Counted from the first letter of the stretch, positions 28,071 to 58,668 are shown. The stretch: 64,000 nt of DNA from Marsupella aquatica (GCA_973895155.1 OZ316893.1:27538210-27602209); one strand, 5' to 3'. The notes: generated by a model not told the origin, from the sequence alone. A program made the numbers and translations.

Positions 28071-29662
28071 TACTCTCAGTTTTGTTGCGGATTGACAATG
28101 TCATTAACTCAAAATTATGTTGCTTTACAGGTATGTCGGCCTAGAGAGGTTTTAAAATTGAATTTCTGCAAAAAAAAATTTGGATTTAAAGAATTGCAGA
28201 ATTGTCTCTGGCTTGCTACGTGTCCATTGACACTCAGGTCCTACACTCATTTCAAGAGTTGTGTAAGGACTGTACCACATCTACGAGATCTGTAGAAAGA
28301 TTTTTGCATGGAATATTTTGAAGTAGAAAATGACTTGGTATTTGGCAGGTGACAATCTCTTTCTCTCTCCCTTGTTTTTTTGGCTATCACGTTTTCCCTC
28401 TGTCCCTCTTTGTTTTGTAGATTGTTGTCTGAGAAATCTGAACATGTGTATATCTCTAATGCAGCGTTTCAAGTGTTCTCGGCAATGGACACTTCTGGGC
28501 GAGCACAAAGTGGATGCAGCATAACGTTGGGGAGGGATCTGGGCGCCTCAAAGCTTAGAAGCATCCTTAATTCTAATTTGGGGAGTTCTCGTTTTTAATG
28601 AATCAAAGTTTGGTCCAAGAAGTTTCTCATCTCTTGTGGCCTTGGTGATTGCATAATAGAAAATGAGAGAGCATGAATAGGACAACCTATTGATACTTCT
28701 GGGCCACTTCTGGGCCACAAAGTTGATGCAGCATAAGGAGGGGGGATCTGAGAGGCGTTGTGCTCACAAGCATGTTAATCTCTTTTAACATAACTCTAGT
28801 TTGTTCTCTGTTGTGTACAGTAATGCTATGGCCATCCTATGGGTTTTGAGTACTTCACATTATAAGGTGATCATTTTTTCCTATTCTACCTTTGTGTGTG
28901 TCTTGCAATAAGCTACTTGCTGCATATCACTTGTAAAACTTAAAGTATAAATATAGTGAAGTTTTTGTGTGGTGCAGGACAATTTGGTTTGAAAAGGTTA
29001 TTTCTTGGAGGGTGAAACAAGAGCATTTGTGCCTAATCTCTTTTAAAATAACTGTAGTTTGTATTCTGTTGTGTACAGTAGTGCTATGGCCATCCTATGG
29101 ATTTTGAAGACTTCACATCCTAAGGTGATCATTTTTTTCTATTCTACCTTTGTGTGTTTCTTGCAATAAGCTACTTACTGCATATCACTTGTACAGATTA
29201 AAGTATAAATGTAGTGAATTTTTTGGGGTATAACCACCGTGACAGCAAATAGTAAATAGATTTGCTGTTACGAGCAAAAATTTACTCATATGAGGATTTC
29301 AATTACTCATAGCAGAAATTCTGTTTACTCATACGAGAAACTATTTACTTGTACGAGTTTTATAGGTTATTCAAAGTTCAAAAAAATGGCTCGATGTTAA
29401 AAAATAACACCCATATAAGCGCTCTCTGAAATGCTAACATAATGGGGCCCACCATTCAATGATAATAAATGGGCAATATAAAGGTCATTATAAGAACACA
29501 CGCTTTATTTAACAGTCAATATATTTGCTATTTGTTTCAAATTTTGGCTAGTGCCAGGCGCTAGCAACAGACAACACATTTTTCTGGATAAGAAACGGGT
29601 ACATCTTCTGTCCGTTAGAAAAGACAAATGCCACTTAAAGTTGTTGAACGGCACCAAATTGA

Positions 29663-32600
29663 CTACATGTCCGTTCCATTTTGTCGATCAAGCAGGTAAC
29701 GGACTTCGCCCAATGTCAGAACTGGTTGACTAGATAGTGTTGAATCGTTAAGACTCAACTTTAACACAGTCCTGAATACCCAATATAGATGTTTGCAAGG
29801 CATGTAAGGTTTCCTATAAACGTGCCTCCGATAGAAATCCTCACATGAACAGCAAGGGAAACAACAAATCTGCACCCAATAAGAGGCAGCATTCCTCTCA
29901 TGTTCATGTGTTCTGATACAATACTGCTTCCCCCACGCATTCCCACTCGTGACATCTCTCTCGCATACAAGCCTCATTACTTCTGTTTCGGATGCTTCGA
30001 TCTTCTTGTAATGTGTTTGAGTTAGATTCACTCTCTGCAAGCACTTCCTTCCATTCCTGGAGCCACATTTGAAAATTGGGTCCGCTAAATTGATCCTCTC
30101 TTGGAACAAATTCACATCGATGTGTAACTCAGACGGGGATGGCTCCTGACCTTCCCTTACCTCTCTTGTACCAAGTAGACCTTGTTCTCTCAAGAATTGG
30201 ATCTCGCCCTCCTGGAGATTGGTCCCTCTCGCAATGGGAAGAACGAATGGTATATTGGGAATGTTTGAAACACCTCTTCTTGGCCGACTTTTATGACATT
30301 TGTTGTTTGGGCAAAACCATATCTGGTCCGGATGAGGTTCTCCTCTAAAAAGTCTACATCCTCTTACAGATATTGCAACAACTCCTTCTGGATTTGGAAA
30401 CCCAACCTTCTTTACTCGATTTCGACATTCATCGCAGCTTTCTCTCCAACCGAGGGTCCCATTACAAGCTGGACCAGCACCGCGTTTTGTAGTTCGTCGG
30501 AGCTGCCAGAGACCTGGAGCTATGTCAGTTTCCATTGGGAGAAGAGATTCCTCAGGCGCGGCCTCAGCTTGATGTCCTACGGGAGGAACAGAAGATCTTG
30601 TTGTCCGACATGAGGGTGTCTCAAGGACGACGACCTCCTCAGAATCTTCACCCTCAGTTTGAGACAAATTAACAATGCCACTTCCACCAGCAGAAGGTGT
30701 GGAAGACATCTTCTCGAAGTCTGTGGAATGGAGGTTTCTTCTCTTCAAACCCCTTGTATTTGGTGAAGTCACAAGGATAGTATCATGCCTGTGAGAGTCT
30801 TGTGCCGAGACATTCCCACTTGCATTACCTTTTCGCTTCACCGATCGAGTTATGACGTCTCCATTCAATGGAACAGTTCTTTCCAAATCAAATTCAGCTG
30901 CGTTGGAAAGAAGGAGATTGGTCGCTTCTTCAAATAGACGTGGAGACCCTGTCATGTCGGCAGATCTGAAAGCCAGCTCAAAGATAGTGGGTCCAGTTCC
31001 CGGATGTAATCCTTGACCGTATGCAGTATATGATGCTATCTGACATACGGCTCGGTTTTGGTCAGTTTTGCACCCCTCCATGAGGCCAACCCGCTTCTTC
31101 ATTTGCCATGCCTTCATGCCTGCATGGATCGATTCCAAACCAGTACAATTCGGAATCATACCTGCCTCCTCAGCACTCTTGCTCTGTCATCGGAAACAAA
31201 ATTTAGTACTACAGTAATTCGCGACAAGTGTAGTTTGTATTTATGCAATATGGACTCTCTAATATATAAGTAGCACCTGGTGCTATCAAATCTCTTGCAT
31301 GACTGCCATGTTCATAGTTGCAAAAGTGTGCTTGTTCATACTAGCGCTTGGCGCTACTATACTGTAACAAGGAATTGGAGTCAGAATAATCATTTTCCAT
31401 ATTAGCGCCAGGCGCGATTACAAATCAATGGTAACGGACTATCATGAATCTAAGAAAATCCTTACCATCCTAATGAAGTTTCCCCAGGCCATTGTCTCCA
31501 ACGGACGACCCACCATGAGAGCCATCCTTGCAACATTCGAAGCTTCCCCTGATGGCAATTTCCAGCTCTCCACCAATCGTCGATCTCTCTTGACATACGA
31601 TATGCATCCAAAAATGTTTTTGCGTTACGAAGACCGTCCCACATCTTCTTGTGTTCTTCAAGTTTTCCTTCTGGAACACCTTCGCGTGAATGCCGACGAA
31701 ATGACTAATAAAAATGAAACGCATCTGATCGCTCTCGGTCAGGATCAGGTACCCCATTGAAGAAAACATTTTGCACCGCATTCCATCCAGCCTGGGCATT
31801 GTCCGCCATGAATCCTTGAATTTGAATGTTCTCCAGGCCATTTTCACTCGCAACTTCTATCATCAATCGCCACGCTCTCTCTAAGGACTTGGTGTCTTCA
31901 GCCTTTAATTCACAAGTGAAAATTGTACAAAGCGCCCGATAGTGATGATCATATACATGAACACTAAAAGTTAGCCAGTCCGATGTAATTCTATGCATGA
32001 CGTCGAAACTCACCCATGACCCTTCTAATGAACCACCGGTCTGCATTTTCCGGAGAAGGTCGATCCCAGATCCTTCGCCTTTCACAGTCATCTTGAAGAT
32101 GTGAGCACTTTCATCTCGACATCCTTGGCCTGGAAGCAAATACCTATGAAGAAAGGGAAGTCTCACACACTTTTGCATCCGTACCAAATATTCAAGCTCA
32201 CCTTTGTCTTTCTGGTCTTGTCTCACACTTCGCAGAACAGAAGCAAACTTTTGTGGGGTAGCAACAACCATGAGGGACTCCTAGATCTCCTTCTCCTCTT
32301 CCGAAGACATTTCCTCCATGGATTCCTCACGGAGGGCATTGGTTAGAGAGTCTGTAGCCGCATTCTTTATCAAAGCGGGCGTAGCTCGTGGATTAGCCTG
32401 GAACTCCTTTGCGAGGTGAGTCTTAGCAACCTTTTCAGCCTCTCTCGACCACACTCGACGACTGGGATGGTTGTGAAATCCCATGTGCACAGCCAGTTGG
32501 GACATATACGCCAAATGAGTTGAATCCACTTTGGCCAAAGGATACATATAGAACATCATGGCCGGACACGATGTTGTACACATCGGAAGTTTAGAGCAGT

Positions 32601-33492
32601 GGTGACAGACAATACCACCTTGCGGTATGAGTTCTCCAACTCGAAAGGTGCCTGATAGTTTTGGTGATCTTGCCCAGACTTGGTTGTTCCTAGTCTTTTT
32701 GTCTCTCCAGAATTGGCAAGAATTGTTCCGACATTCAAGAGAACCGATACACTGAACCTTTCCAAAATCCCACATCTTCTTCGGTAAAACATTCGAAGAT
32801 GTCTTGACAATGCGCGTCCAGTAATAGCAATCCTTCCCGCGGTCCATGTCCTTCAGTCGTTCCCCTTTCGAATTCATGCAATCGACTGGAGGCAACTCAA
32901 ACACAACATTCCCATTGTATGTCATCGGGAGGCTGGGAACTATCTGATGCGTGAAATCCTTCTCCCTGATGAAATGAGATAACTCGCTATGTCCCTTTGA
33001 TTTTAGGATAGTATCCATCGCACTTTGCCGATATACAATTGGGATATCTTGAACCTCCATCTTCACCACCAAGGGATCCACTGAGATCCTTTTCGGGACA
33101 TCAAAGGAAAGGGGTGAATTCTTCCCGTCGTCTTCCGAAGTGTCAGACAGATTGACAACATCAACACCACCGGGAACAGGACATAGATCTTCCGATGCTT
33201 CAGAATCTTCCAAAACAAAGACCTCGTATACTTTCTTCGGATACATTGTCCAAAACCTGAGTCCATCGACGACATCATAGAAGATGGTATTTGCCTTTGA
33301 ATCCTTAGGGAGGAGGGACACAGAGAGAATACACTCTTTGGAAACATCAAATCTCAACCCCAAGTATTCATCCAAAACTCTCCTTGACTGAGATTCAGGG
33401 GATACGATAACTGTGACGACATCCCACGTGTCCTTGCGTCTCACTACGATCGATCGTCCCATTTCAGCGGAAGATAGTAATCGATGTCTCAC
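29663..33492 (-). pseudogene. MULE transposase: GCM-like Zn domain + DDE core + SWIM finger
   Basis: CIGSLECRNNSC..CHHC..C..HMGFHNHP (GCM/WRKY-like). D1 in SFDVMHR, D2 in FMADNAQAGWNAVQNVF, DAFH (CxxH position) and E in GLESIHAGMK. SWIM CSCEDF..PCKHL. Intron 31465-31184. Stops at 32281 and 31705, frameshift near 31485. Confidence 0.85.
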
Positions 33493-34108
33493 TTCCCCAA
33501 TCGGTTTAAGGCTTGTTTGATGTACGAGGTTAATAACGACAGTATAAATGAACGTTGAATAATGACAAAGAAAGTTATGTTAATGGTTTGGACGATGTAA
33601 ATCAATTGAATTTTGTCATTATTCAACGGCTGTATTGAACCAGCTTAATTGTCGGGAGTTTAATAGCATCGGGCGCTACTTTTGTGAATAGGGAACAACT
33701 TGACAATGGAAGCATGACTCTCGACCGAATACAGTACTGCATGGCGAGGAGGACAGGGAAAACTCAGATCGTAATAATAGCGCTCGGCGCTATCATCAAA
33801 GCTCGTACGTTCTACCTCTAACAATAGATAGGAAATCCGTGAATCGGTCCAAGTATGCACGTGTGCATTAAAGTTTCCACAATCGACGCATCTCGGACGT
33901 CAATTGCACGGTCGGAAACCATTACATCTAAGACATCCATGGAAATCCGAACGTTCTCACCTCTGTCCTCAAAACCTGGCCGGCGAGTCTGCCTCTCACC
34001 ATTTGAAGTTGTTTGTTCTTAGAAACATTTTTTGCTCTCCTGCGTCCATTTTTATACGAGAAACTTCCGTTCAGTCTTGATCGTTTAGAGTCGTTTGTTT
34101 AAGTTTCC

Positions 34109-37100
34109 ATGGCTCCACCACGAGCTAAGGGGAAGGCGCAAGTTACGTTTCAAAGCGGCAGCGATGGAGAGGGCGTTGAGGAGAAGTCTCTCGCGAAGCC
34201 TCCTTCTCATTTGAACGTCCCGATCTCGGCGAAGGGGAAAGTAATTGCGAAAACCCGGGTTGTATCCGCACCAGATGGTGCTCCTTAGGCTAAAGGTTCA
34301 AGACCCAAGGTGTAAACCTCTTGAAGGTGGTTTCAAGGCTAGGGTTTGGCCTTGAAGAGGAGAATGAGTGGGAAGAGTTTGTTAAGAAGATGAAGCATCG
34401 ATTTTTGATGTCTGATTCTGAGAGGATGACTGAGGGTACCTTTTTGGACTGGATTCGTGAGAGGAACAAGGGGTTGGGGCCAGAGGAGCTTCTCTTGGAA
34501 TTCAAGAGAAAACTTGGACAATTGCCTTCTACTGACCTTGAATTCCTTTCCCTGCAAAAGGTGTCCCTATTTTTGCGTTCAGCTGATAAGAGGCTTAGGG
34601 ATGAACTTGAGTATGCAATTGACATTGTTAACCCTCGTAGAAGGTCTAAGGTAGATTGGAGTCATGTGGAAGAAGCTGTAGAGATCATTTCTAAGAGGCG
34701 AAGAGATAGAGCCTTGGATGATGAGGCTGTTGCAAAGCCAACAGCTGCTCCATCTAAGGCAGGTAAGGGGAAAGTAAAGGAAGAGCCTTCCAAAGATGAG
34801 AAGGGGCTAGAGCCATCTGACTTGGCCAAGATCCTTGAGAGTCTAAACTTGTTGTCTAAACAAGTGTCTGGTCCAAAATCAGGGCCATGAGAAGGTGATA
34901 GGGCAGGTCCAAGTCGAGCTACAAATTGGTCATGTATGTGGTGTGACTCAAAGGAGCATCAAAAGAAGGAATGTCCAGATCTTCCCAAAGCCATTAAGAG
35001 TCATAAGGTTAAGTATGTGGGTGAGCCAGGCATGAGGAAACTTGCCTATTTTGAGTCAGGAGAGGAGATTCCTTTCAACAATGGAAAAGGAGGGATGAAA
35101 GCCTTGGTTGAGAAACGTTTGACTGAAGCTGAGGTAAAAATGGTATCTCTTGCATTTGAGCCTGAGGTTTACACCTTGGGTCTTGAACCTTCATCTTCAA
35201 GAGGTTCGCTCCTACCTATTCAAAACTTACTCAAAGACTCAAAAACTGCCAAAAGCGGCAGCACTTTAGCAGCATCACGGTGTGAGAGAGAGCCCTTGCC
35301 CTTCGAACTCTCCTCTTTAGTACTCTCGTGGGAAGGCCTGGGGCAAGGCACAAGCCCTCCACTTATGGTTTAAGTCCTCGACAATTTTCAGCCCTTGATC
35401 ATCCATCAAAAAATCTAAGGGTCAAAAATGAGCCAAAATACCATCCTTTGTAACTTTGTAACCAAATGAGGCTTCGCACTTTCGAAAAAACCTCGACCTC
35501 CTCCAAACCCTAAGGCACGTCCTCATCCTCAATCCTATCCATTCATCCATTGACTCAACCAAGATCCACCGTTGATGTAGGTTCAATGAATCTAGTCCTT
35601 ATTTCACAAAACTAGGAATCTGGCCCATATCTCACAAAACTGATGCACTTGGACCAAACCCTCTTACATGCCTTGAACCTGGTCACCTCCTCCATGTATT
35701 CAATGAACCTGGTCACCATGTCGCCAAAACCCTAGATACCTTGCTTGTTGAGCAAGCAACCTCCATTCCGCCAATCCGCCAAATGATAACTTAATCGCTG
35801 GTCACAAATGAAAAACATACCCCACAATAGTAACAAGGGTGGGTAGGCTCGACCTCATCCCTACCTTGACCCTCATAACTCTACTTCCTCCTTCACATTG
35901 GTCAAGTTAGCTCAAGTCAAGTCAACTTGCCCAAGTTAGAAGCAAAAATTGGTTTCAACTTCCTTCACAAAACATGAGGATTCCTCCTTTAGGATGGAAA
36001 CCTCATGACATCGGTGTTGCTGGAATTTCAATGGACGATTACATTTCCAAGCATGTCTTGTCCTTTGGGAAAGATTTCAGAGGATTGGAGAAGGAGCCTC
36101 CACAAATTCCTCTATGTCGATTGATTCATATGGAAGTGGTGCGGACGTTGCAGAAGCAGAGCGCCTCCATCGACAAATTGAAGAAGTCATTCCGGATTTC
36201 TGGATACAATTCGCGCATGGGCATGCCATTTTACGTACAGCCAACAAATGCGGATGGGGTTCCATAGATTTGCACTAATGAGATTAGAGCCTCTTGGGAC
36301 CCAATCTGGGTTGCCGAGAATGACAAGTTCGAGGAAGAGTGTGACGTTGATCCTGATTTCAGAGTTTTGAAGGACAAGATATTGTGTGTCTTCGATGGAA
36401 ATCACCGTTTGTATTCGTGGTCGATTGTGACAGCAAAGCAACCGGACAACATTAAGTACCACCCTCATGTGACTTGCATTGTTTTCAATGGAGATAAAGG
36501 TTCCCTCGTGGAGCTCGAGGCTGCCATGCACGCTGTCAACCAGTAAGCCATTCCTCAGGACAACCTCATTTAATATGACGTACTAGTTCAAGATGGATTT
36601 TGGATGTGATATTATCTTTGGTGTTTTACTAGCGCCCGGCGCTGCTAATTTACATTTAAATTTTGACGTAGGTTGGGACAAGCTGTGGTCGAGCCGTCTT
36701 GGATTCTTGATGCCGACATAATCTCTCGTCTTTTATCCCGTGACCTAGAGCACTACAAACCCCTAATTGATGCTACGAGTTATGCTAAGTTTGAAGCCAT
36801 TCGAAAGAAGACTCGAAAGGGTTCTTGGTATACACACAAGATGCCACAAGACGCGCTCATCTACATTTTGTGTGAGAACAAGATTAAATCTTACACAAAC
36901 CAGTTCAAAGTGGACATGGATTTTGCAGCCGCCCAGGGGACTCCGTGGTCCGAAGAGGAGACGCAGAAGAGGCATGAAGCTATGATGAAGGAAGCGACAA
37001 AAGACTGGGCTATCAAAGTAACAAAGATCACTCCATTGCTGCACCCTGATTTTGGTGACTACTTGGCTACATGTTCCGAAATGTTTCTTGTCACAGAGAA

Positions 37101-39580
37101 GAACAAAAGAGAAAAAAAGCCCGATACAGTTGTTTGCACTATGGACTGTGCTCGTCTGTTTACTGCAGTTACTTATCTGGATCCGAAGTTAAGGTGTACC
37201 CTTCTCGTTGCCCATTGCACTCCGGAGATTCGGAAACAGTTCTTTCATCCGGCTAGTGTGAACGACAATCCTGTAAAACAATGGTGCCATACCTGGCATA
37301 TCTGGAATTAATTGGAGGAAATTGCTACTGGATTGATCCTCACCTCGCTCGAGCAGGTTTTGGATTGCATGCCAGATGATCGTCTTGTCAAGTCTGGTTG
37401 TGAGTCCCTGGATGTTCTCATGAAGTCCATTATCAAAGAATTCAAATCATTTGGAGACCTTGTCAAGGCTAAATTTTTCAACATAATGTGGCCATCAAAG
37501 TATGCAGACAAGGAGGACTACACTGAGCGGAACCGGAAATGAGCGAAGCGATACGTTTACCATTTCTACATGTGGATGGAGTTGCGATCTCCTGAGGTTT
37601 TGTGGGCTTACCCTGGTGCATTTCAAAAGTGGGTGATTATCAAAGATGGTGACCACCTTGTTGATCTGTATTCGATGTACCCAGCTGAGGGAAAGTTCCC
37701 ACCTCGCGCCTTGTCAGAGTGGGAGAGACTCCACTGCCCATGGTATCTTGACACTGACAAATGGGATCTGCCTTTCGACGAGGTGGAGAAAGACGCTTTC
37801 ATGAAGTTACAGCAGTCGCAAATCCCAGCAAGGTACATATCGGAGATGAAGCAGGGTCTTGCGATTGAAGTGGACGCTTCGACAACTGAATTGCAGAAGA
37901 AATGTGAGACAGTCATCGTGCATGTTGACCAGAGCCGAAAGCCAAGAGTGAAGGCCAAGAATGAATGATCGCTTAAAAAATGTTAAGTTTGCCTCTTAGG
38001 ATTCAGTAAAGTATTCCCGCTCTTGTTTGTATGACGTATTTTCCCCCAATTGATACTAGCGCCGAGCGCTATTATGAAAACTAGTTCCGTTGAGTACCGT
38101 CTCTCCATCTTTCAGGGGGAAGGAAGTCGGATGCTACCGGTGATGTAAAAAAGGACGCTACTCCTTAGGCCTCTGAAGCTAACACTAGTGCGGAAAATAC
38201 ACCAGATCAGGGAACCCCTGGGGAGAGTGGAAAGACAGTGGTTCCAGTGGACGCGACAAGTATGAAGAAGAAGGAAAAGAGAGGAACACTTGAGGATAGG
38301 CTCGGATCTTCGTCCCAAGATTCAGTTGCGTCTACTGGATTGCAAAGAGATGTGGGGAATTTCAAACAAAAGTGTACTCGACATTGTTTTGTGGAGTCGA
38401 GTGTTACATAATGTTTTGATTCCTTGTTTAACAAGGGAGAAAAGCCGGACTGGGTTTCTAATATTGAAGGTTGGGGGAAAGAGCTAGTGAAGTCTGGGGA
38501 TCGAGCAAAAGGGGTTGTCCGAGGGGGAAAAGAAAGAGCTTTTGGAGTTGATGCTGGTTTCATATATCTTCCAACTGGGTTGAAACCAACACTTGTGGAT
38601 AGGAAGGTTCCTAAATGGAACCTTCAAGATTATACGATTCCAAGTGCCTTTTTCAGAACAATGGATCCTTTCCTAGCAGATGATGGATTGCTAGCAATTT
38701 TGCACAGAGGCGACTATGACCAAGTTTCCGAGGTCATTGCAGCTTGTCAAGATTCACAGAAATTCCAGTGTATCTCGACACACAATGTTGTCATGGGCAC
38801 TCCAATGTACAGGCCTCGCTCGGATATGCAGGTATGTATAGTAGCGCCTGGCGCTATTCCAAAGTTTCTGTTTGGTGTCCTCCTTTGGAGATTGACGGCG
38901 ACGCTAGCGCCAGGCGCTAGTGTGGAATATCCTCTTCGTGAAATGTTTCCGTATTCTTGACGTAGCATCTGATGTTTATTATGAACAAAACGTTATTCGA
39001 TGTGCAGATTTTTACGCTCACTCTCAATGTTTTTGGGCGTGTTTCGTCCAAAGGTAGGGTCCCTAAGGATCCCAAATTTCGGCCTCTTTCACATACAGAG
39101 GATCCTTCAATAACCAATCTCATTGGTTTTCCCGTGCCAAAAAATGATCCTCTGCCGGAGCTTGCGTTCGCCGGGAATTCAAGGCTGCCTGTGGGTTTCA
39201 TGCAGTCCGTTTTAGAATTAATTACCCTCCCTGGGGATATTGTCATGGACTAGACTGTTGGGGCCGGAAGTACATTTGTTGTTGGAGATCATTGTGGGAG
39301 GTTTGTAGTTGGGATTGAAAATCGTAAAGAGTTTCTTGACACTGCCACAAAAGTTTTCTTTGGACTTCTCGAGAGTAAAGAGGCCTCCACGTCCACGCCT
39401 CCGCACCGGCAGGTGGGGAGTAAGAAGCAGGACAAACTCCGTTCTGTTCTTAATTTTGATTCTGACGAGGACAATGATGGAGGCGATGGTACGCAACAAT
39501 CTAAAGATGATGGGGTCTCCAAGAAAGTGGTGAACCTCGGGTCTTCTGAATCTAAGGATAGTGAAGAGTCTTTTGAGTAA
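34109..39580 (+). pseudogene. ParB-like domain + beta-class N6A/N4C DNA methyltransferase-like fusion gene (element 1)
   Basis: ATG at 34109. ParB-like IPLCRL..VVR..IDKLKKSF..SGY..PFYV..FDGNHRLYSW. MTase-like VDAGFIYLPTG, PFLADDGLLAILH and RLPVGFMQSVLELITLPGDIVMD*TVGAGSTFVVGDHCGRFVVGIE. Introns 36543-36672, ~37985-38114 and 38832-39007. Premature stops and a retroelement insertion in exon 1. Confidence 0.75.
34287..35983 (+). mobile_element. Rearranged Ty3/gypsy-like gag fragment inserted in exon 1 of the ParB-MTase gene
   Basis: Gag-like ORFs 34321-34890 and 34936-35373 with Zn knuckle CMWCDSKEHQKKEC. Flanked by a CTCCTT duplication. Removing it restores the frame (PDGAP-LGWKPH). Confidence 0.7.
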
Positions 39581-39639
39581 TGATCTTCAGCTTCCCTATC
39601 TTTTTTTTCTTTTTAAGTGTGACGTTAGTGTCTCCAACA

Positions 39640-40010
39640 TTCCACCATTTTCTCGGACCCGACTGAAGATATTGAATTCAACTTTCCAGGTCTGAGTGGA
39701 ATCTTTGGAGGCGCTTTCAACTACGGAGGAAAGTCGCTAGGAATGCAATAGAAACCCCGGAGAAGCTGTTTGTCTTGCCTTCTTATGCAGAAAAGGCGGC
39801 TTGAAAAGCAGATTCTGTGAGAATGCTGACTTGGGAAAGCAAAGGCCTGAGGCTCAAAAGGGGTCTGATAGAAAGTTTATGAAGAATCGCTATGTCGATG
39901 ACATCGTCCCGAGCAAGTATGTAGACGACGAAGCTGAGTCTACTGATAGATCACAAAGTAGTGAAGAAGAATCAGAACTAGATTCGACTGATTCAGAATC
40001 TGATGGCTAG
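39640..40010 (+). pseudogene. Small conserved acidic ORF/exon of element 1
   Basis: TPEKLFVLPSYAE, LTWESKGLR and YVDDEAESTDR align with ORF 57018-57455 of element 2. Disrupted by a stop and a frameshift. Confidence 0.6.
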
Positions 40011-41540
40011 CCAGACTTTAAAACTATATTTTGGGGATATAGATATTGGCTATTTTACAAAATAGCGCTTGGCGCTATTGTGAACACATGTAATATTGAT
40101 GGGTGTTTATAAAGTGAGACGGACTGTCCACATTGTTTTTTGACTAAACTTTCCTTTGTGAAGCGGACAATCTTAACTTGGGATGTATTACAATTGGGTG
40201 TTTACCCTAAAGTTGATCTCTGTTTTTAAGTCTGTTATTGAGGTCTGTATACTAGCGTCGGGCGCTAGTATACATATGTTTTGGGGGATACTTTTGCAAA
40301 TAGATGTTTCAGGACTGTAGCGCTGGGCGCTAGTATTACGATGTGTTTCAAAATGATGGATTTTAGAGATTTCGATCTCATTTTACGAGAGATGTCGGAT
40401 TAGGGAAGATTTTTTTGGTGCAGACATTTGCTGCTATGAGCTTTACTGTTTGTTGTTTGCTGTTTGCTGTCACCGTGAAAAGCCTCAAGTTTTTGTGTGG
40501 TGCAGTAGTTTTGATTCTCAAGTTGGCATGGCAAAGTTGGGATTAATTCCTGAAAGATTAAAGTAATTCTTCATGCAAGGGGAAGTAATCCTTGAGATGA
40601 TAGTGCAACTGGTATGCTCCAACTGTACCTTTAACTGTTAGATTGAGCTCATCATATTCCTCTGCCCAGGTGAAGAATGTCCCAACAGAGCCTCTACCCA
40701 GGTGAATTTTCATTTTGTCTAACTAATTGAAACCAGACTGTCTAGCAATTATTTCACATAATAGAGATTATATGGTGTCTCACAACTCTTGTGTGTGATT
40801 ACAGGACTGTTGTTGCATCAATTGTACATGTCTTGCCATGATCAATTTCTGGTGAGCAATGAAATCACTCCTTGAGCAAGTTTGACAAAGTTCACGGAGC
40901 ATAAGCTAGTTTGGGGGATAGGATTAGATGGTCATGATTGCCCACATAGTCAATCTATTGACAGTTTCTGAAATGTACAATTGTTTGAAATAATAAAAAT
41001 GTTTGGATCCTTTCAATATAAGATCTAGGAGTTCTTTGAGTTCTTTATTGTGAATGTCATATACATGATGTTTTTGTTATTGTTTAGTGGTTTCCAATCA
41101 TTGTGATGTAACATGTTTACATTTTTAATCTTGTTGTGGGTCTTGTTGTGGACTCATTGTGGATTTCATTTTGAATATCAATCATGTGAATCTGTGCAAG
41201 ATCTCACCTCCCATGAACCCTAAAACCTGAGACACCCCAATTAATGACATCCCAAATGACTTCACCTAATGACATCTCATAAGACAACCCTAATTGACAT
41301 GCCATATGACATCTTAAATGACACCCAGTATGACTCTAAAATGACTCCATAATGACTACACGTGTTGCATGTTCACTTGCTAAATAGCTGTCATTTGCAA
41401 TAGTCATTTGAGACATGACTGAAATAACTACTAATATTGCCCACCTGGTCAACTGGCATTGGGCCATGTGTCATATTTTCATTGGTGGAAACATATTTAG
41501 TCATTTCTGAAATGTTGGTAATGACTAGAAAAAAGAGGAG

Positions 41541-49100: not shown

Positions 49101-49552
49101 AACGTGATATCGACACTCAATGTCCAACACAGTTGTAAGGGAGAACATCTTTGTTCATTTTGAAATAACTTCTTGAGAAGATTTCCGACTGCAATGTTTG
49201 GACTTACAGTACTAGTTTTGCTAGCGACATCGCTAACAAAACTATGCGTGACTAAAATGGTTTGTTTCTCCGAGTGTATATCCAAAAACCATTTAAAATA
49301 CATGAGTTATTGAACTCTACGTTATGTAGAACTTGGTCAAAAAGAAACCATTTACGGGAAACATAAAACTTTACTTTTACGGGTTTAACGCCAGAGACCT
49401 CGCTAGCAAAATAAACACTATTGCCGATACGTATAGAATAGTACTAGACCCTCGCTAACATTGCATACGCAATATAATTAGTGAGGTGGACGACTTTCCT
49501 ATGTTCTGAAAACCAAAAAGGTGACAAAATTAGGGACGCTGAGACGTTCACC

Positions 49553-52500
49553 TCAACGGATAATAGAGATTAAGTCAACTACACTGCAACGGAATCTGTC
49601 TAGATTCAGTGAGAACTTGTTTAAGTACACCCAAAGGAGGTGTTTACAAGACATATAGGGTCTTCCTCTCGTGTGTCTCTTGTAGAAGTCATCACATGAG
49701 CAAGAAGGAAAGCAACACACTTGGACCCAGTACTTGTGTGCAATTTTAGAATCTGTCTCGTGAGTGACAATAAGATATTGCCATCCCCACCCGTTTCTGA
49801 GGCATATCTTCTCACTTCCAATGACTCTCATATGTTCGTCAGTCGCAGATCGAATGCGTTTTAGAAGCTCCGGGGTGTTCTGGAAACATTGACGAACGCC
49901 TTTCCCATTCCGAGTCTTGAATCTACGGTTTGGAATACCAATGTCAACTCTTTCTGGGAAGGAGTTCACATCATTTTGGAGGTCAACACGATTTGGAGAG
50001 GAGAACGACCCAATTGGTGCTGGATCAGAGTATGATAATCCTCTTATTTCAATCCCATTTCGAAGAAGAAAGTCAATCTCTGTTGGGGTCAGCCTGGTCC
50101 CACGCTGGACTTGCAATGCCTCAGGTGGTTCCGGAAGCTGGGCAAGAGTCCTTCTACCACCTGTTTTATGGCACCTATTATTCGGACAGAAGTATAGAAG
50201 CTGACAATGTGGAGATGACAACCTCAATCCGTGAATCGCAACACCAACCACTCCAGCCCGGAATGCCTTCATTCCAGTTTCTTTGATGAGATTCCTACAC
50301 TCATCTCTTCCAAACATACTTCGGTCCACTCGTCCATTGCAAACAGGTCCACTCCCTTTTCCACTCCGCCTCAAGTGCCAGGTCCCATATGTCACATCAA
50401 CCTCTTCAACAAAAGGGATCCTTCGGGGTGCATCCCGAATTTCATCCCGATTATTTTGAGGCTGTGGTATTTCTCCAACGTAGTTCGGGTCCTGTGTTGT
50501 ATCTCCACGGCTAAGATCTTCACCATCATTTGATATTTTGAGAGACAGTCTAATGTTTCAGTCGGTGACCAAAATACATTTACGAAAGAAGTTTTATTGC
50601 TAGCGATCTCGCTAGCTTAAACTCATCAGAAAGAATTCACCGTTACTCACCACACGAATAAAGTTACCCCATTGTCTCCACCGCACAACCCACCATGAAA
50701 TCCACCCTTGTAGTGATTTAAGCTTGGATGGGTGACAATTCCCCTCTTTCCACCATTTTTGAATGTCTTCGGCGATACGATATGCTTCGACGTATGTTGG
50801 AGCAATTCTTAACTTCTCCCACATCTTATAGTGCTCCGCATGACACCCCTCCTTGATCCCCTCCAAAGTGTGTCTTCTGAGGGATTGAGAGAGATGGAAA
50901 GCATCACTATGCTCTTTCAGAGGATTTCTGACACCCCCAAAAAATACCCTTCTCACAGAAATCCAGCCAGCCTCCGCATTGTCTGCTATGAATCCTCCAA
51001 TAATGGGATTATGCACTCCATTCTCGGATGCGACATCTACCATTAACCTCCACGCAGTTTCAAGCGACTCTGTGTCTTCGGCTCTCAACTCGCAAGTGAA
51101 AATTGTACACAGAGCGCGGTAATTATGGTCATACACGTGTGCGCTGAAGGTCAACCATCCACTAGTGATACGATGCATCACTTCAAAATTGACCCACGAA
51201 CCTTCCAATGCTCCTCCAGCCTCCATGCTCCTCAAAATTTCCACACCCGATCCAGGACCATTTGTACTCATTTTGAATACATGCGCTCGATCATTTCTGT
51301 TTCCTTGACCGGGAAACAGGTACCTCTGCACGAAAGGGAAATTGTTACGTGATTGCATTTCACGAAGTGAGTCAAGTTCTCCTTTTTTAGGATTATCCAT
51401 CTTCACACTCCGAAGAATAGCTTGGAACTTTGGAGCGGTAGAAACTACTCCGATCGAACTCCAAATTTCTTGTTGTTCTTCTCTCGACAACTGAGCCGAT
51501 GATTCTGGATGCAATAGCGAGACAAGGTTCCCAATTGACTGGTTTCTCAGACATGCGGGAGTTGAGACTGGATTCAACCGATGGACCCCTAAAACAACAT
51601 CTTCCGCTGTTTTTCTCGCATAACGAGATTTTCCCTTCCAAACAGGGTGATCGTGGAATCCCATATGCACAGCCAATCTGGACATATGCATTGAAATGTG
51701 ACTCTCCAAACCTGGCTTAGGGTAAACATACAACAGTTTTGCCGGGCATTCTCAAATACAGAGAGGCCTCTCTTCACAGAAGCCACAGACAAGTCCGCCC
51801 TCACTCACTTGCTCTCCAAGACAAAAGATGTCAGTCAGCAACCCTTTCCCTCTGAAAGCGCAGTCATTTTTGACTCCAGTATGTTTCAACTTCCGGCAAC
51901 CCAAATTATGGCATTCAAGATTTCCAGCGCAACGAACTTTCGACACAGCCCAATGAAACCTTGGCTTCAAATTTGCAGATGTAGTGACTAGTCTCGTCCA
52001 AGGATAGCCGTCCTTCTCTCAATCCATATCTTGGAGACCTCCTCCCCTCCCGGCCCCCTCGACTGGAGGAAGTTCAAAAACAACGTTACCATTGTATGTC
52101 GATGGCAGAGTCGAAACCTGACATTCATTCCATTGATTCCCTCTTCTAAATTGTGCAAGTTCACTCGCTCCACTGATATTGAGAAAAGTGTCATAGGCAC
52201 TCATCCGATACACTGTGGTCATGCTATCCCCAGTCCTTTCAATCAAATTTGTCGCTAACCCTTTGGGTTTGGAACCATCTCGTGACTTCATCGAACCACA
52301 AGATGTGTCTTGCCTTATACTCTTTGGAGATATTTCAATGACCTCAGGAGCTCTGTCTTTGGGAGGCGTCCCAAGATCAATCATAGGAGTTTGATGAACG
52401 GGATCTAATTCCATGGGTTCCAAAATGACATCAGGAAAACCATCTTTACTGGACAGAACCTCGACACAAGATCCAACCTTCAGCGTCCAGACCTTCCCGG

Positions 52501-52717
52501 AAGTACTACTGTCCTCTCTCAACTCGTGACTCCGTGGCCCATTTTGAGAATACAACTCAAACAACTTCATGAGAAGGTCATCTTTTGGAATTCCAAAATG
52601 AGTTGCAAGGAATGACTCTGTCACCCTAACCTCCGACGAGTCAGGGGCACTTGGGAGTACCACCACGTCTCCCGTGATTCTACGCTCCAAAACCACCTTG
52701 GAATTCATCGACATCAT
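49553..52717 (-). pseudogene. MULE transposase of element 2 (GCM-like + partial DDE + SWIM), internally deleted
   Basis: Homologous to the element 1 transposase: TYNGNVVFELPPV, CAGNLECHNLGC, HMGFHDHP, FIADNAEAGW, SDAFHL and CSCDDF..SCKHL. Intron donor at ~50648 is at the same position. The ESxH segment is absent. Stops and frameshifts. Confidence 0.85.
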
Positions 52718-53322
52718 CTCTTCTCAGCATACAAAAATACAACGACTATGTTTTGAATCGCCCATACGAATCCTATTTGCAGGACCAAAACTGGGTTTTT
52801 TCCCAACGGAAACAACAATCCGAACAGATTGTCAGTCTGTTCCCGTTGATTTTACCGTTATTTTGTCTTTTACTCAACGTATAGGGACGTCTCCCATGCT
52901 AGCGATCTCGCTAGCTTGGTTTTGATAGTTTTATGGCAAGCAAACTGTTGATTTCAACTCTTTTTAAGGATATCTGTGTCATTGAGTTTATGCCAGCGAT
53001 CTTGCTAGCCAAAAAGTCAAACTGATTTTTGATGAAGTTTACCGTTAGGATCCCGTTGGGAATAGTCAACGGGTACCATAATGTCAACGGTACAAATTAC
53101 ACGGGACACCTGGAGTATTTTGTATGGATAAGATTATCGGTCGTGAAGGTTGTTCTTCGTGTTTTCCAAAAGGTACAACTAGTGGTCCCTGCCAGGAGAT
53201 TTCTGTTATTCCTTACATCGTACTGTTGATCATTGTCAGTATTCACTATCGTAACTCTGTAAGGCTTTGGAAGTTCATAGCAGTTTGTACGGCTGTCCTA
53301 ATTCTCCGAAAGGAGGTGCTCT

Positions 53323-56300
53323 ATGGACGTTTTTGACGCGTGCAGCCGCTGCAGTCTCCGGGCTCGAGCACTCTTCTCCGAAGGGTTTTATTTCATGGAG
53401 TCATTGTTGTCTCCAGAGAGTATTTCTTTGAGAGGATCATTTCAGTCGAGGGAGTCGACAAGGAGAGAAACTAGGTCCACAGCGAACAAGAAAGCGCTTG
53501 CAGCGGGATTGAAGACTCCAAGGCGGCCCAAGATGGTGACAGCGGTAGATGTAGTTGCTCGTGTGTTTGATCCGAGCGCTTCGGAACCTTACACGGTTGT
53601 CATAAACCGTCATCTTCACTCGTTTGGAGTGAATGAGTTTGGATTTGCATTGGCTCCCCCCCGAATTCCTCTGTGCCGGATGAGAAACATGCAGATTGTC
53701 CGGTCTCTGCAGAAGGATTCCACTACGATAGACACATTGAAGTCCGAGTTCAAAACCCAGGGTTACTTCGAGGATGCGCCTCGATTTTACGTTCAGATGA
53801 CAAATGAGGATGGAGAAATCCAGATCTGTACAGATGCCATCCGCGAAACTTGGGATGATATTTGGGTGTTGCAAAACGAGGAGTTTGAGCGCGAATGTGA
53901 TTCTCATGTTTCTTTCCAGATCCTCAAGGACAAAATGTTCTGTGTTTTCGATGGGAACCACCGATTGTATTCGTGGAGCCAAGTGGCGGAGGAACATCCG
54001 GATGATATTAAGTACCATCCTCAAGTGGTCTGCAAGATCTTTAAGGGTGAAAAGAACTCTTTCGTTCAGATCGAGTCGGCTATGCACGCATTGAACAGGT
54101 GGGACTTCTCATGATAAGATAGTTCTGAAATTTCATTTTTACCAGGTCACTTTCAGCTAGCGATCTCGCTAACATGAGGCATGTTGTGGCAGGTTAACTC
54201 AATGTCATGTAGAGAATTCCTGGGTTTTGGAGGCTGAACGCGTCCAGAAGATTCTGAACAATGACTTATCTGTTTACAAAGATATCATCGACGCTGAGAA
54301 TTACAAACTTTTCCAGCAGAAGATGGCCAATGTGCGGAAGGCGGCATGGTATTCGAAGAACATGATGCTGGATGCCTGCACTTATATTCTATCCGCTGCT
54401 AACATTGCATCGCAGACCGAGGACCTTAAGAAGAAATTTGCTCTTAAGGAGGCTCAAGGTGAGCCCCTTTCCAAGGCTGCACAGGACTTAGCAATGCGTG
54501 ACATGATGAAAGAACAACTTGCTGATTGGAATGTGAAAGTTCCAAAGATCGGTCCATTACTAAATCGTGAGTTTGGAGACTTTTTCAAGAAATGTGTCGA
54601 AATGCATAACTACTGTGAGAACGAGAGAAAGGAGGCCCAGAGAACAGATGATAAAGGCAGGGGAAATGTTTCTTGTGGTCTTGATCGAGCTTGATTGTTC
54701 ACTGGTGTGACCTCTTTATCCCCAGAGCTCCGATGTACACTCCTGGAGGCACAGTGTTCGTCCTGAGCTTCGGAAAAAATTCTTTCATCCAGGTCAATTC
54801 TCAGATGGTGAGACTAAGCTTTCGCTTCATCGTTGGGCAATGTGGGAGCAAGTCGAGTCAATTTCGTCTTCCCTCATGTCTAAAATTGTTTCTGAGGTAA
54901 TGCCTACTGTTCCTAAGTCGAGGATCCTTACGTCTTCAGAGAAGACGAAAGCTTCGCTAATCCTTGACATTGAGGAGGATTTTGAGGATTTCCAAACTCG
55001 TGTGAAAACTTGTTTCTTCAAGCAGATTTGGCCACCCAAGACAGGAGAGAAGGTAGACATTACATTGTTTCGGAGGAGAGCGAAGAGATACACGTATCGA
55101 TTTTTTGTAGACAGAGAAGTAGTAGACAAATTTTACTAGTGGTCCTACCCAGCCTGTTTCTCCCCATGGATAGTCGGGGTTAAAGAGGACCCTACAAGTG
55201 ATAAGTTTGGGGAATATTGTATGTTTCCATGCGAGGGAAGTGAAGCTCCGAGGAGATTGAGCAAGTGGGAGGTTCTTCATTGTCCATGGTATTTGGACTC
55301 GGACAAATGGTCTGTGACATTTGACACTGCAGAGAAAGCAGCTCTTCACATGATCAATCGAGGATTCCTTCCGAAATCTTACATCTCCGAGTCCAAATTG
55401 GCACCCACTGATGCTGAAGTTGGTGGTTGCGAGGCGATGGAAAAAGCTTGTCTTGGTGTAGCTACCATAGTGGATAGGAGTCGAGCACGGAAGCCAAGAA
55501 AAGGAGCATTGAAGGACACATCCAAAGATGGGTCCCAGATTTCCGGAAAGCCAAGTAAGTCTGTTAATTGTATGTTACTTTTTATTTTTAAGTCCGGATG
55601 GGTGTCGAATATACAGATACTAATGTCTTTTGCTTCACAGAGAGGAGGAAGGGAGTGGCTTCTGAGAGTTTGAAGAGTGGAGCAGATGATGGTGAGGAAC
55701 CTCAGTCCCCAAATGCCGAAGTCACAACAAAGAGCGCAGTGGATTTAGGAAGTATAAAACGTTTGAAACGGAAGCGGAACATCCAGATTCTTTCAGATTC
55801 GGATGATGAGGAAGTTTCAGTTGCTCAAGGTGTTGCTCGGATGTGTGGTTTGAAGATGGATGGGCAGCAACATTTCCTGGCTCATAGCAATTTGACCGAT
55901 ACTGCAAACTCAATTAGTGTAAGTAAAGTGAGGCCATCTTGGATGGGAGATGGAGATCGATGGATTACTGGGATGTCGAAGAGCGTAGAGTGCCCGAACC
56001 ATGTCGTAATTAATGGAAAGCCTTATGCTGGGATTGGAGCACATTTGGGATTCATTTCTCTTCCCACTGGGCATAGAACAAGCGTTACAGACAAACAGGT
56101 TCCATCTTGGAATGTTTGGAGCAAGAAACTCCCACATTATTTTTTTGGAGTGATGAGACCAATGCTTTCAGACGACGGATATGTTGCTGTCTTGCACAGC
56201 TCAGACTTCAATCACATGAGGCAAATATTTACGGCAGTCGAGCAAAAAAACAAATTCAAACATGTGCAACAATATACCGTTTTGTTGTCCACCCCTTTAT

Positions 56301-57012
56301 GGAGGGCAGATATGGATATTGAGGTAGTTATCCCTTAAATTTCTTGAGAGTTTTAATGCTAGCGATGTCGCTAACAAAATTATAATTTTTATCTACCAAA
56401 CATATCTTGTCTAGGTGTTAATTTTCTATTTTCCGACTAAGTTAATGCTAGCGAGCTCGCTAACAAAGTTAGCATTGTTTCTGATGTATTTTGGTTTTTA
56501 TGCAGGTGTGCACTCTCATCCTGGATGTTTTTTGTCGGGTGGAATTTAGTGCAAAGATTCCTAAAGACCCAGCGTATGTTCCATTGACGTCTTCGGAAGA
56601 TGCAAGACATAAGTCAATGTTGAGTGTTTGTTACCCTAAGACTGACCCCTGTCCAGAAGCGGCTGTTGCTGGATCAAAAAGGCTTTCAATTGGGTTCATG
56701 CAAGTCGTGATGGAATTCCTCATGAAGCCCAAAGATATAGTCCTTGACTGGACTGTGTGTGACGGTAGCTCGTTTTCTGCCGGAGAATTCTCCGGGAGAT
56801 TTGTTGTCGGTGTTGAAGACAGGGACATTCTCCATTGCTGTGCAGAAAAAACTTTAAACAGTGTTCTGGCGAGGCATTCGAGCAAGGCAAAACAGATTAG
56901 GGATCAGCCAGCCAAGGTTAATCAAGACGCTGGGTCGGATGATGAGTTCACGATTCCAGGGGATGAACAGGCTGGGCCTTCAAGCGAGAAAGACGAATTC
57001 GACCTGGAGTAA
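53323..57012 (+). pseudogene. ParB-like domain + beta-class N6A/N4C DNA methyltransferase-like fusion gene (element 2)
   Basis: IPLCRM..IVRSL..IDTLKSEF..QGY..FYV..FDGNHRLYSW. AHLGFISLPTG, MRPMLSDDGYVAVLH and KRLSIGFMQVVMEFLMKPKDIVLDWTVCDGSSFSAGEFSGRFVVGVE. Introns 54099-54192, 55555-55640 and 56324-56505; introns 1 and 3 are at the same codon positions as in element 1. Stops at 54692 and 55137, frameshift near 54760. Confidence 0.78.
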
Positions 57013-57017
57013 AGTAC

Positions 57018-57455
57018 TTGGCCTCTTCTGATGTCGGACTCCCTATTTGGTTTCTTTTGTTTTCTTTATTTTGTTGCTCTTTGTCAACTGATGTCGGTGG
57101 TTGCGTCAGTGATAGGAGGGTGGATTGGTTTTCTGAGGAGAGATTTCGTCTTTGGAGGGAAGTCCAGGAGTCCATTGTGGTTACTCCTGAGAAGCCTTTT
57201 ACTCTTCCGTGCTATGCTGAGACATCGGCAAGGCAGGTTGATGAAGATCCTGTTGTCTTGACTTGGGAGGCGAAAGGACTTCGGTCCATGAGAGGTGCTC
57301 GAAGATATCTGGATTGTTCAAGGTTTATCGACAATGAGGCGGGGACAGTCCGTCAGTATTTAGATGAGTCTGCCGAGTCCACGGAGAGGGAGACCAGTAG
57401 CGATCCTAGTAGTAGTGACATCTCTGATGAATCAGAGGATGAAGTTTATGACTGA
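57018..57455 (+). CDS. Small conserved ORF/terminal exon with acidic tail (element 2)
   Basis: Open 145-codon frame homologous to 39640-40010. The true start is uncertain; a polypyrimidine tract suggests it may be a spliced exon. Confidence 0.55.
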   Translation: MASSDVGLPIWFLLFSLFCCSLSTDVGGCVSDRRVDWFSEERFRLWREVQESIVVTPEKPFTLPCYAETSARQVDEDPVVLTWEAKGLRSMRGARRYLDCSRFIDNEAGTVRQYLDESAESTERETSSDPSSSDISDESEDEVYD

Positions 57456-58668
57456 ACAAGTAAGAGGAAGTAGGACTGGATGTACTGGTCGAGGTCGACT
57501 CTCACCATTTTTCTGTCTTGAAGTTGTTGGCGATCCACACTTTCAATGTCAAGAGGTTCCATATTTTGATGGGAGTTTCTAGTTTTGGTGATCCTTTTTA
57601 GATGATTAAAACGTGTGTGGCTCAAGTATGGAATACTTATGAAAATCATGCAGGATTTTTCATTGTCATATTCGTTTCATTATTGTAAGAGGTGGAAAAC
57701 TGAGACTGTTTTGGCATTGTTTTCATGGAATGTGAGAGAAATTTATCCGCCAGAATGCTTCGCTAACAATGTTGCCTCGCTAGCAAAATCTCCTGTTTCC
57801 TCGCACCATACAATTCCTCCTTCACAGACCCAATACCCTCAATTTGACAGGAGTGATCATTTCCCATTAGAACTAAACCGTTTGAAACAGAGTAAGAATT
57901 GAAAAACTCACGAATGTAATAAATGTGAAAAGAGCAAGCACAATCGAGAATCCACATATCATCTACTCTCCTAGATGACGTGCATAGGGCATACCCCTGG
58001 CTTCATAATACATACTCATCATTGAGTAAATCAGCATCTCCATCAGCCCTAGCCACATTTGTCGATGAAGATTCAGCTGCCTTTCCCTTACAATCTCGCT
58101 TGAAGTGTCCGACCTGGTTGCACTTCCAACATGTCATTTGCCTCCTCTGAGGGGATTTTCCCCTGGACTTAGATCTGGATTTAGATCTAAACTGGGTTCT
58201 ACGGTCCCCAGTTGGTCGCTACATACTCCTCCCACGGTTAACATTGAGGGCAACACCAGATGATGAAGGTTGTGACGTGATGTACATCTTCTGTTGAAGA
58301 TCATCACCAAGCAAAGAACTTACCACATCATTGTACGAAATGGTATCCCTATCACGATGCAACAACACCCGTGATAGAGACTGGTAAGATGGAGGCACTG
58401 TAGAGTCTTCATCATTCAAAGTCTCCCCAAGGTTTTCCAAGTCAACGACCATGTCATTGAAAGCATCCACATGGTCCTGCAATTTTGTACCAGATTCCTT
58501 CATCCTGAAACTCATTAATTTGTAGGAAGTATAGAGCCGGTTCGACAACTCCTTGCGGTGATACTTGCTTTGCAATTTTGCAAACAAGGATATGCAATCT
58601 TTATGTGCACCCAACTGCTTGATGATGGGAGGCATGAGATAGAGTGTAACACACCACACTCCCTGCTC

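Follow-up and report, generated by a model that had tools for sequence, protein, structure and literature searches.

A Predicted ParB-Like and Methyltransferase-Fold Accessory Gene and Element-Specific Palindromes in Two Mutator-Type Transposons of Marsupella aquatica

Introduction

To our knowledge, the binding and protection of a transposon's own DNA by a transposon protein has been proven only for a few flowering-plant systems, and the ParB-type systems of algae are a proposal. The described systems closest to the locus presented here include three from transposons, whose accounts are cited as far as their available text extends. In Arabidopsis, the Mutator-like VANDAL21 carries an accessory gene for VANC21, which binds motifs in the introns, intergenic and terminal regions (PMC5735166). 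The Ectocarpus transposon Sola1-1_Ec32 has a gene for a 1,104 amino acid (aa) protein with ParB-like and N4C/N6A methyltransferase (MTase) domains on the strand opposite to its transposase, and a role in binding and modifying the DNA of its own transposon was proposed for the protein (PMC12477816). In Bostrychia, Plavaka elements have ParB-like accessory genes, PAG2 and PAG3, beside inverted repeats, with arrays of such repeats adjoining the ParB-type PAG3, and homologues of both genes are said to be present in Chondrus Plavaka and Mutator elements (bioRxiv 10.1101/2025.02.11.637652). Here we describe two insertions, E1 (29226-40486) and E2 (47533-57819), in a 64,000 nt stretch of the Marsupella aquatica genome (GCA_973895155.1, OZ316893.1:27538210-27602209; hereafter the window, with positions counted from its first nucleotide). 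They are the land-plant counterpart of the ParB-MTase arrangement recently reported in algal transposons, and each carries dispersed copies of a palindrome of its own.

The likeness to Sola1-1_Ec32 covers the position of the cargo gene opposite the transposase strand, its length (1,084 codons) and the pairing of ParB-like and MTase domains, although the two proteins could be compared by description only. An earlier reading of this DNA, the original prediction, had implied that such a fusion was new; that part lapses, since a ParB-MTase gene is already in print for Sola1-1_Ec32 (PMC12477816). The elements themselves are different: the brown algal one is 21.5 kb long with a 4-bp target site duplication (TSD) and a 282-bp terminal inverted repeat (TIR), whereas E1 and E2 are 10-11 kb long, have 9-bp TSDs in place of the 4 bp of Sola1, TIRs of ~28 bp, and a SWIM finger. 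The available text on Sola1-1_Ec32 is silent on the catalytic motif and on palindromes. PAG2 and PAG3 are separate genes specifying ParB-2OG oxygenase and methylase-SET fusions, and the adjoining repeats form tandem arrays, in contrast to the single palindromes dispersed in introns here. With VANDAL21 the elements share a Mutator-like nature, an accessory gene and family-specific motifs in intronic, intergenic and terminal non-coding DNA; however, the VANC21 motifs are non-palindromic words of 8-9 bases in tandem repeats, and the function proven there is here a prediction for a protein with bacterial-type folds.

Our literature search, which left most subscription journals uncovered, turned up no description of a ParB-MTase carried by a Mutator element or present in a land plant, and nothing on catalytic-motif loss in a ParB-MTase or on dispersed family-specific palindromes. 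The available part of a treatment of eukaryotic amino-MTase clades (PMC4738411) has no such land-plant transposon gene, ParB is absent from the main text of a study that surveyed 1,007 plant genomes for active TIR elements (PMC12973397) and from the available part of PMC6431247, and the word 'methyl' does not occur in a review of Mutator-like elements (MULEs; PMC6446971).

The Cargo Genes of E1 and E2

The cargo gene of E2 has four exons with 1,084 codons, two premature stops and one frameshift, which bears out the spliced plus-strand gene of roughly 1,100 codons described in the original prediction. Six premature stops and a nested insertion of ~1.7 kb in exon 1 interrupt the E1 gene. The parts of both genes are:

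34109-34280, plus strand: E1, exon 1, 5' part (probable, placed by position); N-terminus of low complexity
34281-35960, no strand: E1, nested insertion, partly a gag/zinc-knuckle-like retrotransposon remnant; near-identical repeat contigs; ends approximate
35961-36542, plus strand: E1, 3' part of exon 1; ParB/sulfiredoxin (Srx)-fold domain (FDGNHR), one premature stop
36672-37965, plus strand: E1, exon 2; middle domain, two premature stops; donor approximate
38116-38831, plus strand: E1, exon 3; linker and region of MTase motifs IV-VIII; motif IV is YLPT
39008-39580, plus strand: E1, exon 4; S-adenosylmethionine (SAM)-binding MTase motifs X-I-II and acidic tail; PF01555 (E 9e-8) and Protein Data Bank (PDB) sequence matches
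39618-40010, plus strand: E1, small acidic frame, broken; probably an extra exon
53395-54098, plus strand: E2, exon 1; ParB/Srx-fold domain, open frame
54193-55554, plus strand: E2, exon 2; middle domain, two premature stops, one frameshift
55641-56323, plus strand: E2, exon 3; linker plus the MTase region around motif IV (SLPT)
56506-57012, plus strand: E2, exon 4; MTase motif X-I-II region (DWTVCDGS); without a Pfam match when used alone
57110-57455, plus strand: E2, small acidic frame; probably an extra exon

The two genes are 39% identical over 1,003 positions. Introns 1 and 3 have identical positions and phases, so that the earlier statement of kept intron positions stands for these two; the donor of intron 2 in E1 is approximate. 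Seven stretches were compared between E1 and E2: the non-synonymous divergence (dN) is 0.40-0.69, and the synonymous divergence (dS) stands at 2 or is saturated in every one of them. The low dN against saturated dS argues for long purifying selection, apparently followed by recent death of the window copies, and two of the premature stops of E1 are sense codons in other copies in all four public sequencing runs. Together with relatives in Riccia and Adiantum, the purifying selection upholds the view that this is an old, spliced eukaryotic gene and no bacterial contamination. The term 'domesticated', used in the same prediction, does not apply to a transposon accessory gene of which both window copies are dead.

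The small acidic open reading frame (ORF) downstream is conserved in both elements (40% identity over 91 aa, E 7e-11, tblastn). It is preceded by a pyrimidine tract and AG, and is more likely an extra exon, probably an alternative last one, than a gene. These frames also hold a (F/Y)(I/V)D(D/N)EA-like word that recurs at the C-terminus of the Riccia protein P0044. The nested insertion of E1 has gag/zinc-knuckle-like frames inside a 40-bp inverted repeat (34281-34320 and 35164-35203), followed by a near-identical high-copy repeat, and its Pfam matches are weak (Ty3_capsid, E 0.11; CCHC, E 0.12).

The N-Terminal Domain

The AlphaFold model of E2 exon 1 has a mean predicted local distance difference test score (pLDDT) of 87, and 172 of its 235 residues reach at least 90. 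A structural search with VIA-align gave 12 of 48,161 chains at Z of at least 2, with PadC (Z 7.2, root mean square deviation (rmsd) 3.0, 95 aligned), KorB (7.0) and sulfiredoxin (6.2) at the top and Spo0J, SerK and SbnI below them. All 12 are, we presume, members of the ParB/Srx superfamily. The top Foldseek matches of the same model were Noc and ParB-CDP (E 0.05-0.07). At the sequence level the domain found nothing significant in the PDB. The FDGNHR motif, pointed out earlier, is present in both E1 and E2, and in an alignment of 82 sequences the Box I-like positions are L (90%), F (95%) and G (83%), and the Box II-like positions G (94%), N (99%), H (94%) and R (84%). Compared with the reference nucleotide-binding motifs ELXXSIXXXGXXXP and GERRXRA (given in the available text of PMC10245682), the family words L..xF...GY and GNHRLxA are similar but not the same. 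The modelled fold, the Box I/II-like residues and the occurrence of palindromes in the same DNA recall bacterial ParB/parS, Spo0J, Noc, KorB and VirB. Unlike these, the family has GNHRLx[AS]W as Box II, an insert of ~50 residues between the boxes, and no ParA partner in the element. By these models, which agree with the original prediction, the N-terminal domain is assigned a ParB/Srx fold, with modest scores and a homogeneous list of matches. The middle domain gave no Pfam match and no usable match in the ESM Atlas.

The C-Terminal Domain

Exon 4 of E1 matches PF01555 (E 9e-8, above the cut-off) at its SAM-binding end only, the degenerate exon 4 of E2 has no Pfam match, and homologues from Riccia are just below the cut-off. 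A model of the domain in the Riccia homologue P0176 agrees over its whole length with beta-class enzymes (CcrM, E 4.6e-8; MboIIA, Z 10.8, rmsd 4.7, 160 aligned), while the P0176 sequence alone gave nothing significant against PDB sequences. In a profile-profile comparison, the family aligned with six phage MTases (probability 98); the row of E2 in this alignment runs out of frame beyond exon 3, its exon 4 junction being one base off, which leaves the counts for motif IV as they are. The motif order is permuted, motif IV preceding motif I, and this order and the modelled fold are those of the beta-class enzymes CcrM, M.MboIIA and M1.HpyAVI, phage enzymes, N4CMT and DN4MT1. The models thus bring us back to the permuted beta-class MTase originally proposed, and the C-terminal domain is best described as a predicted beta-class amino-MTase fold. 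Two details of the proposal were only partly borne out: the motif IV region does come first, but the canonical motif is missing from both elements, and the GxGS pattern of motif I is found in E1 (D*TVGAGS) but reads DWTVCDGS in E2.

Motif IV sets the family apart from other beta-class amino-MTases, which have DPPY, D[LI]PY or SPPY/TSPPY there. All six phage MTases read D[LIP]PY, E1 reads YLPT and E2 reads SLPT, and the family as a whole can be written [DSY][LMF]P[TS], in place of the canonical (D/N/S)PP(Y/F/W). The aromatic position was occupied by T in eight, S in one and F in one of ten family sequences, a set that includes two near-identical paralogues, so that the aromatic residue is missing in nine of the ten. 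The close relatives P0021 and P0022 carry SLPT and YLPT, and the altered motif IV is therefore a family trait and not decay of a window copy. N4CMT and DN4MT1 are host enzymes, and their SPPY/TSPPY signatures do not occur in the cargo family; TSPPY marks Marchantia DN4MT1 (bioRxiv 2021.02.12.428880), and in rotifer N4CMT the joint replacement of S and Y of the catalytic SPPY abolished activity (PMC8885841, a double mutant in which the aromatic was not isolated; both as given in the available text).

Ordinary methyl transfer by the cargo protein is consequently improbable in our judgement, and the working DNA-modifying enzyme of the original prediction gives way to a likely pseudo-enzyme that is predicted to keep SAM binding. 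The contrary reading, an active amino-MTase with an unusual motif IV that writes N4-methylcytosine (4mC) or N6-methyladenine (6mA) on its own element, as proposed for Ectocarpus Sola1-1, appears unlikely, although several features speak for it. The SAM-binding motif I is kept in E1 (D*TVGAGS, where the stop is a sense codon in other copies) and in Riccia (DFAGGWGA), the first residue of motif IV is D in six and S in two of the ten sequences, one fern protein has DVPF, and both MTase exons show purifying selection (dN 0.67 and 0.47; dS 2 or saturated). Eukaryotic N6A-MTases with unusual strand-4 motifs also exist, according to the available part of PMC4738411. Against these stand the loss of the aromatic just described, the Y that occupies the first position in the E1 family (E1 and P0022), and the inactive N4CMT double mutant. 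The differences of the window copies from their relatives, mostly A for G and T for C, look like ordinary decay through host 5-methylcytosine. Given this loss of the catalytic motif, it would be unsafe to assume that genes of this kind account for 4mC or 6mA in plants.

Element-Specific Palindromes

An unbiased count of gapped palindromes was made for each element and for 100 shuffles of each. E1 holds 13 copies of TAGCGC-N3-GCGCTA, 7 of them exact, and the rest of the window holds none. Of TAGCGA-N2-TCGCTA there are 10 copies in E2, 6 of them exact, and a single stray match in the window outside it. In the shuffles, no gapped palindrome exceeded 2 copies. The positions are:

29549, 31271, 31342, 31403, 33664, 33778, 36630, 38057, 38842, 38905, 40063, 40253 and 40318 (29549-40332), no strand: E1 palindromes, all non-coding
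47808, 47933, 49222, 49392, 50601, 52900, 52994, 54158, 56360 and 56449 (47808-56462), no strand: E2 palindromes, all outside mapped exons

None of the 13 copies in E1 and none of the 10 in E2 lies in a mapped exon, even though exons make up 76% of E1 and 66% of E2; they are found in introns of both genes, in the divergent promoter and in subterminal DNA. A third variant, TAGCGC-N2-GCGCTA, is present in three copies in the same transposase intron of the contig L007, one of three metagenome loci found with the transposase. The palindromes were missed by the original prediction, and they make the idea of self-recognition directly testable.

The transposase provides a rival for the role of binder. 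Its Cys/His finger may use the palindromes as sites for self-regulation or synapsis, with the ParB-MTase employed otherwise, for example in aiding integration through contact with the transposase. The location of palindromes and half-sites, in introns and also within the two ends, would suit such a role, the third variant came from a transposase query, and L007, a 2-kb contig, shows no cargo gene. According to the available text of the sources, transposases can activate their cognate copies without a partner (bioRxiv 10.64898/2026.08.24.746577), and MURB binds MURA in maize MuDR (PMC12973397). The full palindrome, however, is in neither TIR, copies in the introns of both genes and in the promoter form the pattern reported for the accessory protein VANC21 (PMC5735166), and ParB-family proteins load at sites that are palindromic (PMC10245682). 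On balance we consider that the transposase is probably not the binder of these sites.

It is very improbable that the palindromes are unrelated to either protein, serving as splicing or processing signals in the form of RNA or single-strand hairpins or being the footprints of a tiny mobile repeat: they lie in most introns and could form stems of 6-11 bp, but they are also found in the divergent promoter and subterminal DNA, the flanking letters beyond the core vary, and half-site and spacer are element-specific, being absent from the other element and from the 42 kb of flanks (save the one stray match to the E2 form).

Proposed Mode of Action

We slightly favour a self-targeting accessory protein, with an MTase fold lacking the standard catalytic motif, that would bind the palindromes of its own element. 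The part of this proposal that makes the cargo protein a putative palindrome binder has, to our mind, a little better than an even chance. A dimer of the cargo protein would load at the palindromes of the element in the manner of ParB at parS, and its putative nucleotide-binding domain may then clamp the DNA and spread. The SAM-binding pseudo-methylase domain would grip DNA or recruit host factors instead of methylating. As an outcome, the protein could sustain expression of the element or protect it against silencing by the host, in the way that VANC acts for VANDAL; this step has the least support, and we offer an anti-silencing role only tentatively, at somewhat less than even odds. A precedent within the ParB family is VirB, an anti-silencer that loads at a palindrome (PMC10245682, available text), and VANC21 and PAG3 are further precedents. 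A fuller version is rather doubtful: a ParB/parS-style system of liverwort and fern Mutator elements in the plant nucleus, in which a nucleotide-gated clamp would load at the palindromes of its family and spread along the element, the methylase-fold domain would shield the DNA from host methylation or mark it through a non-canonical active site, and protein and palindrome (half-site and spacer) would co-diverge.

Several observations weigh against a palindrome-binding, ParB-like cargo protein. The Z-scores of the ParB matches are below 8, the Foldseek E values (0.05-0.07) are above 0.001, and Pfam ParB has no match in the window exons or in 30 homologues. We identified no domain that might read DNA, whether a helix-turn-helix or another, the middle domain not having been folded. 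The MTase model was built for a homologue from Riccia, with 27-28% identity to the window genes, and its pLDDT is 55. The half-sites of E2 cluster inside both of its ends, and a distant transposase locus, L008, is without a repeated palindrome. Linkage of cargo gene and transposase was seen in two of two window elements only, and none of the three metagenome transposase loci is long enough or has a cargo match. Transposases, moreover, can themselves activate copies of their own element in a sequence-specific way, as described in the available part of bioRxiv 10.64898/2026.08.24.746577.

With three families bearing three related palindromes, and an annotated Riccia protein (P0175), palindrome binding by the cargo protein can be tested directly and with built-in specificity controls. 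If the proposal is true, a ParB clamp that acts on the chromatin of a eukaryote, or a pseudo-methylase put to another use, would be a biological novelty and possibly a tool for sequence-targeted epigenetic control.

Element Boundaries and Copy Status

All 146,555 position pairs with a direct repeat of at least 8/9 were ranked by terminal complementarity. E2 came second (22 of 28 terminal bases complementary, TSD 9/9) and E1 fifth (19 of 28, TSD 8/9 identical), E1 being barely over noise by this test alone (nine pairs score 18). The ends are:

29217-29225, no strand: E1 left TSD; partner 40487-40495, 8/9 identical; junction in 3/4 runs
29226-29255, plus strand: E1 left imperfect TIR; partner 40457-40486, 21/30 complementary
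47524-47532, no strand: E2 left TSD; partner 57820-57828, 9/9; junction in 4/4 runs
47533-47562, plus strand: E2 left imperfect TIR; partner 57790-57819, 23/30 complementary

Empty-site junctions were found in public contigs, 47523->57820 (E2) in four of four runs and 29216->40487 (E1) in three of four, and they settle the element ends, including those of E1. As the flanks of both elements are repeats, these junctions are probably paralogous empty sites from other flank copies, and one of the runs may stem from the source of the window itself. The terminal test and the junctions agree on two insertions with TIRs and 9-bp TSDs at the positions first predicted. Thousands of public contigs of 80-99% identity cover both genes of E1 and of E2, each of which is therefore part of a multicopy family, and both window copies are pseudogenes of such families. 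The common layout was also confirmed, the E1 frames being colinear in E2 by tblastn for the transposase, for every exon of the cargo gene and for the small acidic ORF. We hold the identity of the parts with high confidence.

The Transposase and Mutator Membership

The transposase gene lies on the minus strand, head-to-head with the cargo gene, and its products in E1 and E2 are 44.5% identical over 683 aa (tblastn):

29666-31198, minus strand: E1 exon 2 (5' edge approximate), with ESxH at 31150, a SWIM-like finger at 29851 and a stretch of low complexity
31466-33462, minus strand: E1 exon 1; Cys/His-rich region (GCM-like by eye), SFDV, FMADN and DAFH motifs; premature stops
33463-34108, no strand: E1 divergent intergenic region with two palindromes, at 33664 and 33778
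49553-50557, minus strand: E2 exon 2 remnant; SWIM-like finger at 49702; ESxH stretch absent
50648-52717, minus strand: E2 exon 1; FEV, FIADN and DAFH motifs; premature stops

The D, D, C/DxxH and E motifs are present in the transposases of E1, L007 and L008, a pattern that would fit a DDE transposase of the MULE type. That of E2 is without the stretch holding the third acidic motif, ESxH, and has FEV in place of FDV. Of 1,895 candidates searched for relatives, 12 qualified, and the liverwort Calypogeia fissa contributes two of these. Neither a MULE nor a GCM match was found in Pfam, and PDB sequences gave nothing significant. The SWIM finger was recognized through L008, which matches PF04434 (E 1.4e-5, above the cut-off) and aligns with both window fingers, themselves without a Pfam match. 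Conserved Cys pairs and an HxH occur in 13 aligned N-termini, 'GCM-like' referring to the Cys/His spacing as judged by eye; an N-terminal finger of WRKY-GCM1 type is given as a Mutator feature in the available text of PMC1702500. MULEs are described as having TSDs of 8-11 bp and TIRs of 14-500 bp (PMC6446971), and the 9-bp TSDs of both elements and their imperfect TIRs of ~28 bp are within these ranges. The assignment to Mutator, in line with the original prediction, rests on TSD, TIR, SWIM finger and DDE-like motif pattern.

L008 (positions 844-4164) is a nearly intact distant transposase (29% identity) with the SWIM finger, and is possibly a cargo-less relative. A plasmid search for IS256-like kin gave a single match (E 7), and a scan of viral contigs with the transposase gave 20 stretches, none of them confirmed. 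Within E2, downstream of the transposase, a region of ~1.5 kb (47950-49500) has degenerate, coding-looking frames without a match to E1 or to the proteins compared, and is possibly a further exon or a small gene.

Relatives of the Cargo Protein

A profile of the two ParB exons retrieved 310 proteins at E <=0.001 among 1.84 billion representatives. Twenty-six matches were looked up, including nine from Riccia sorocarpa and four from two Adiantum ferns, and no bacterial source was seen among the 13 that carried an organism label. These sources point to a non-seed land plant as the probable origin of the window. The R. sorocarpa protein P0175 (1,207 aa) is annotated at full length; it runs colinear with the window genes, sharing 27-28% identity with them. 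A word-index search of longer proteins with E2 exon 1 had given none among 919 candidates, a weak negative overturned by the profile search. A metagenome scan with the ParB exons yielded 74 stretches, none confirmed, and one of the matches, P0149, is a tandem-repeat artefact.

P0164 of Adiantum capillus-veneris (1,176 aa) ends in a NIF/FCP1-like phosphatase domain (PF03031, E 2.4e-12) and is without a clear MTase domain, which may reflect a domain swap or a fused gene model. In the ESM Atlas, the best look-alikes of residues 75-235 of P0001 were DUF3723 clusters from fungi and one unnamed cluster from cnidarians (0.95), and exon 1 also gave a ParB_N cluster at 0.92; these matches are a lead only. 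DUF3723 is reportedly mentioned in papers on Starships, and the likeness suggests a wider class of mobile-element genes of ParB fold.

Other Features of the Window

The observed/expected ratio of CpG is 0.70 and 0.78 in the elements and 0.36-0.51 in the flanks, a difference that is confounded by coding content and age and was not used as evidence. A candidate third element (4957-18503) was ruled out, as it lies within a long inverted pair having long terminal repeat (LTR) and primer-site features. Long inverted and direct copies are present at 4647-4986 and 18474-18821, with related ones at 19807-20106 and 44938-45237, and show LTR and primer-binding-site features (TGGTATCAGAGC at ~4996); these are LTR retrotransposon ends in opposite orientations, and not a TIR element. 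The flanks also contain tandem arrays at 23303-25199 (units of ~408 bp), 15467-16123 (86 bp) and 58693-59046 (short degenerate units).

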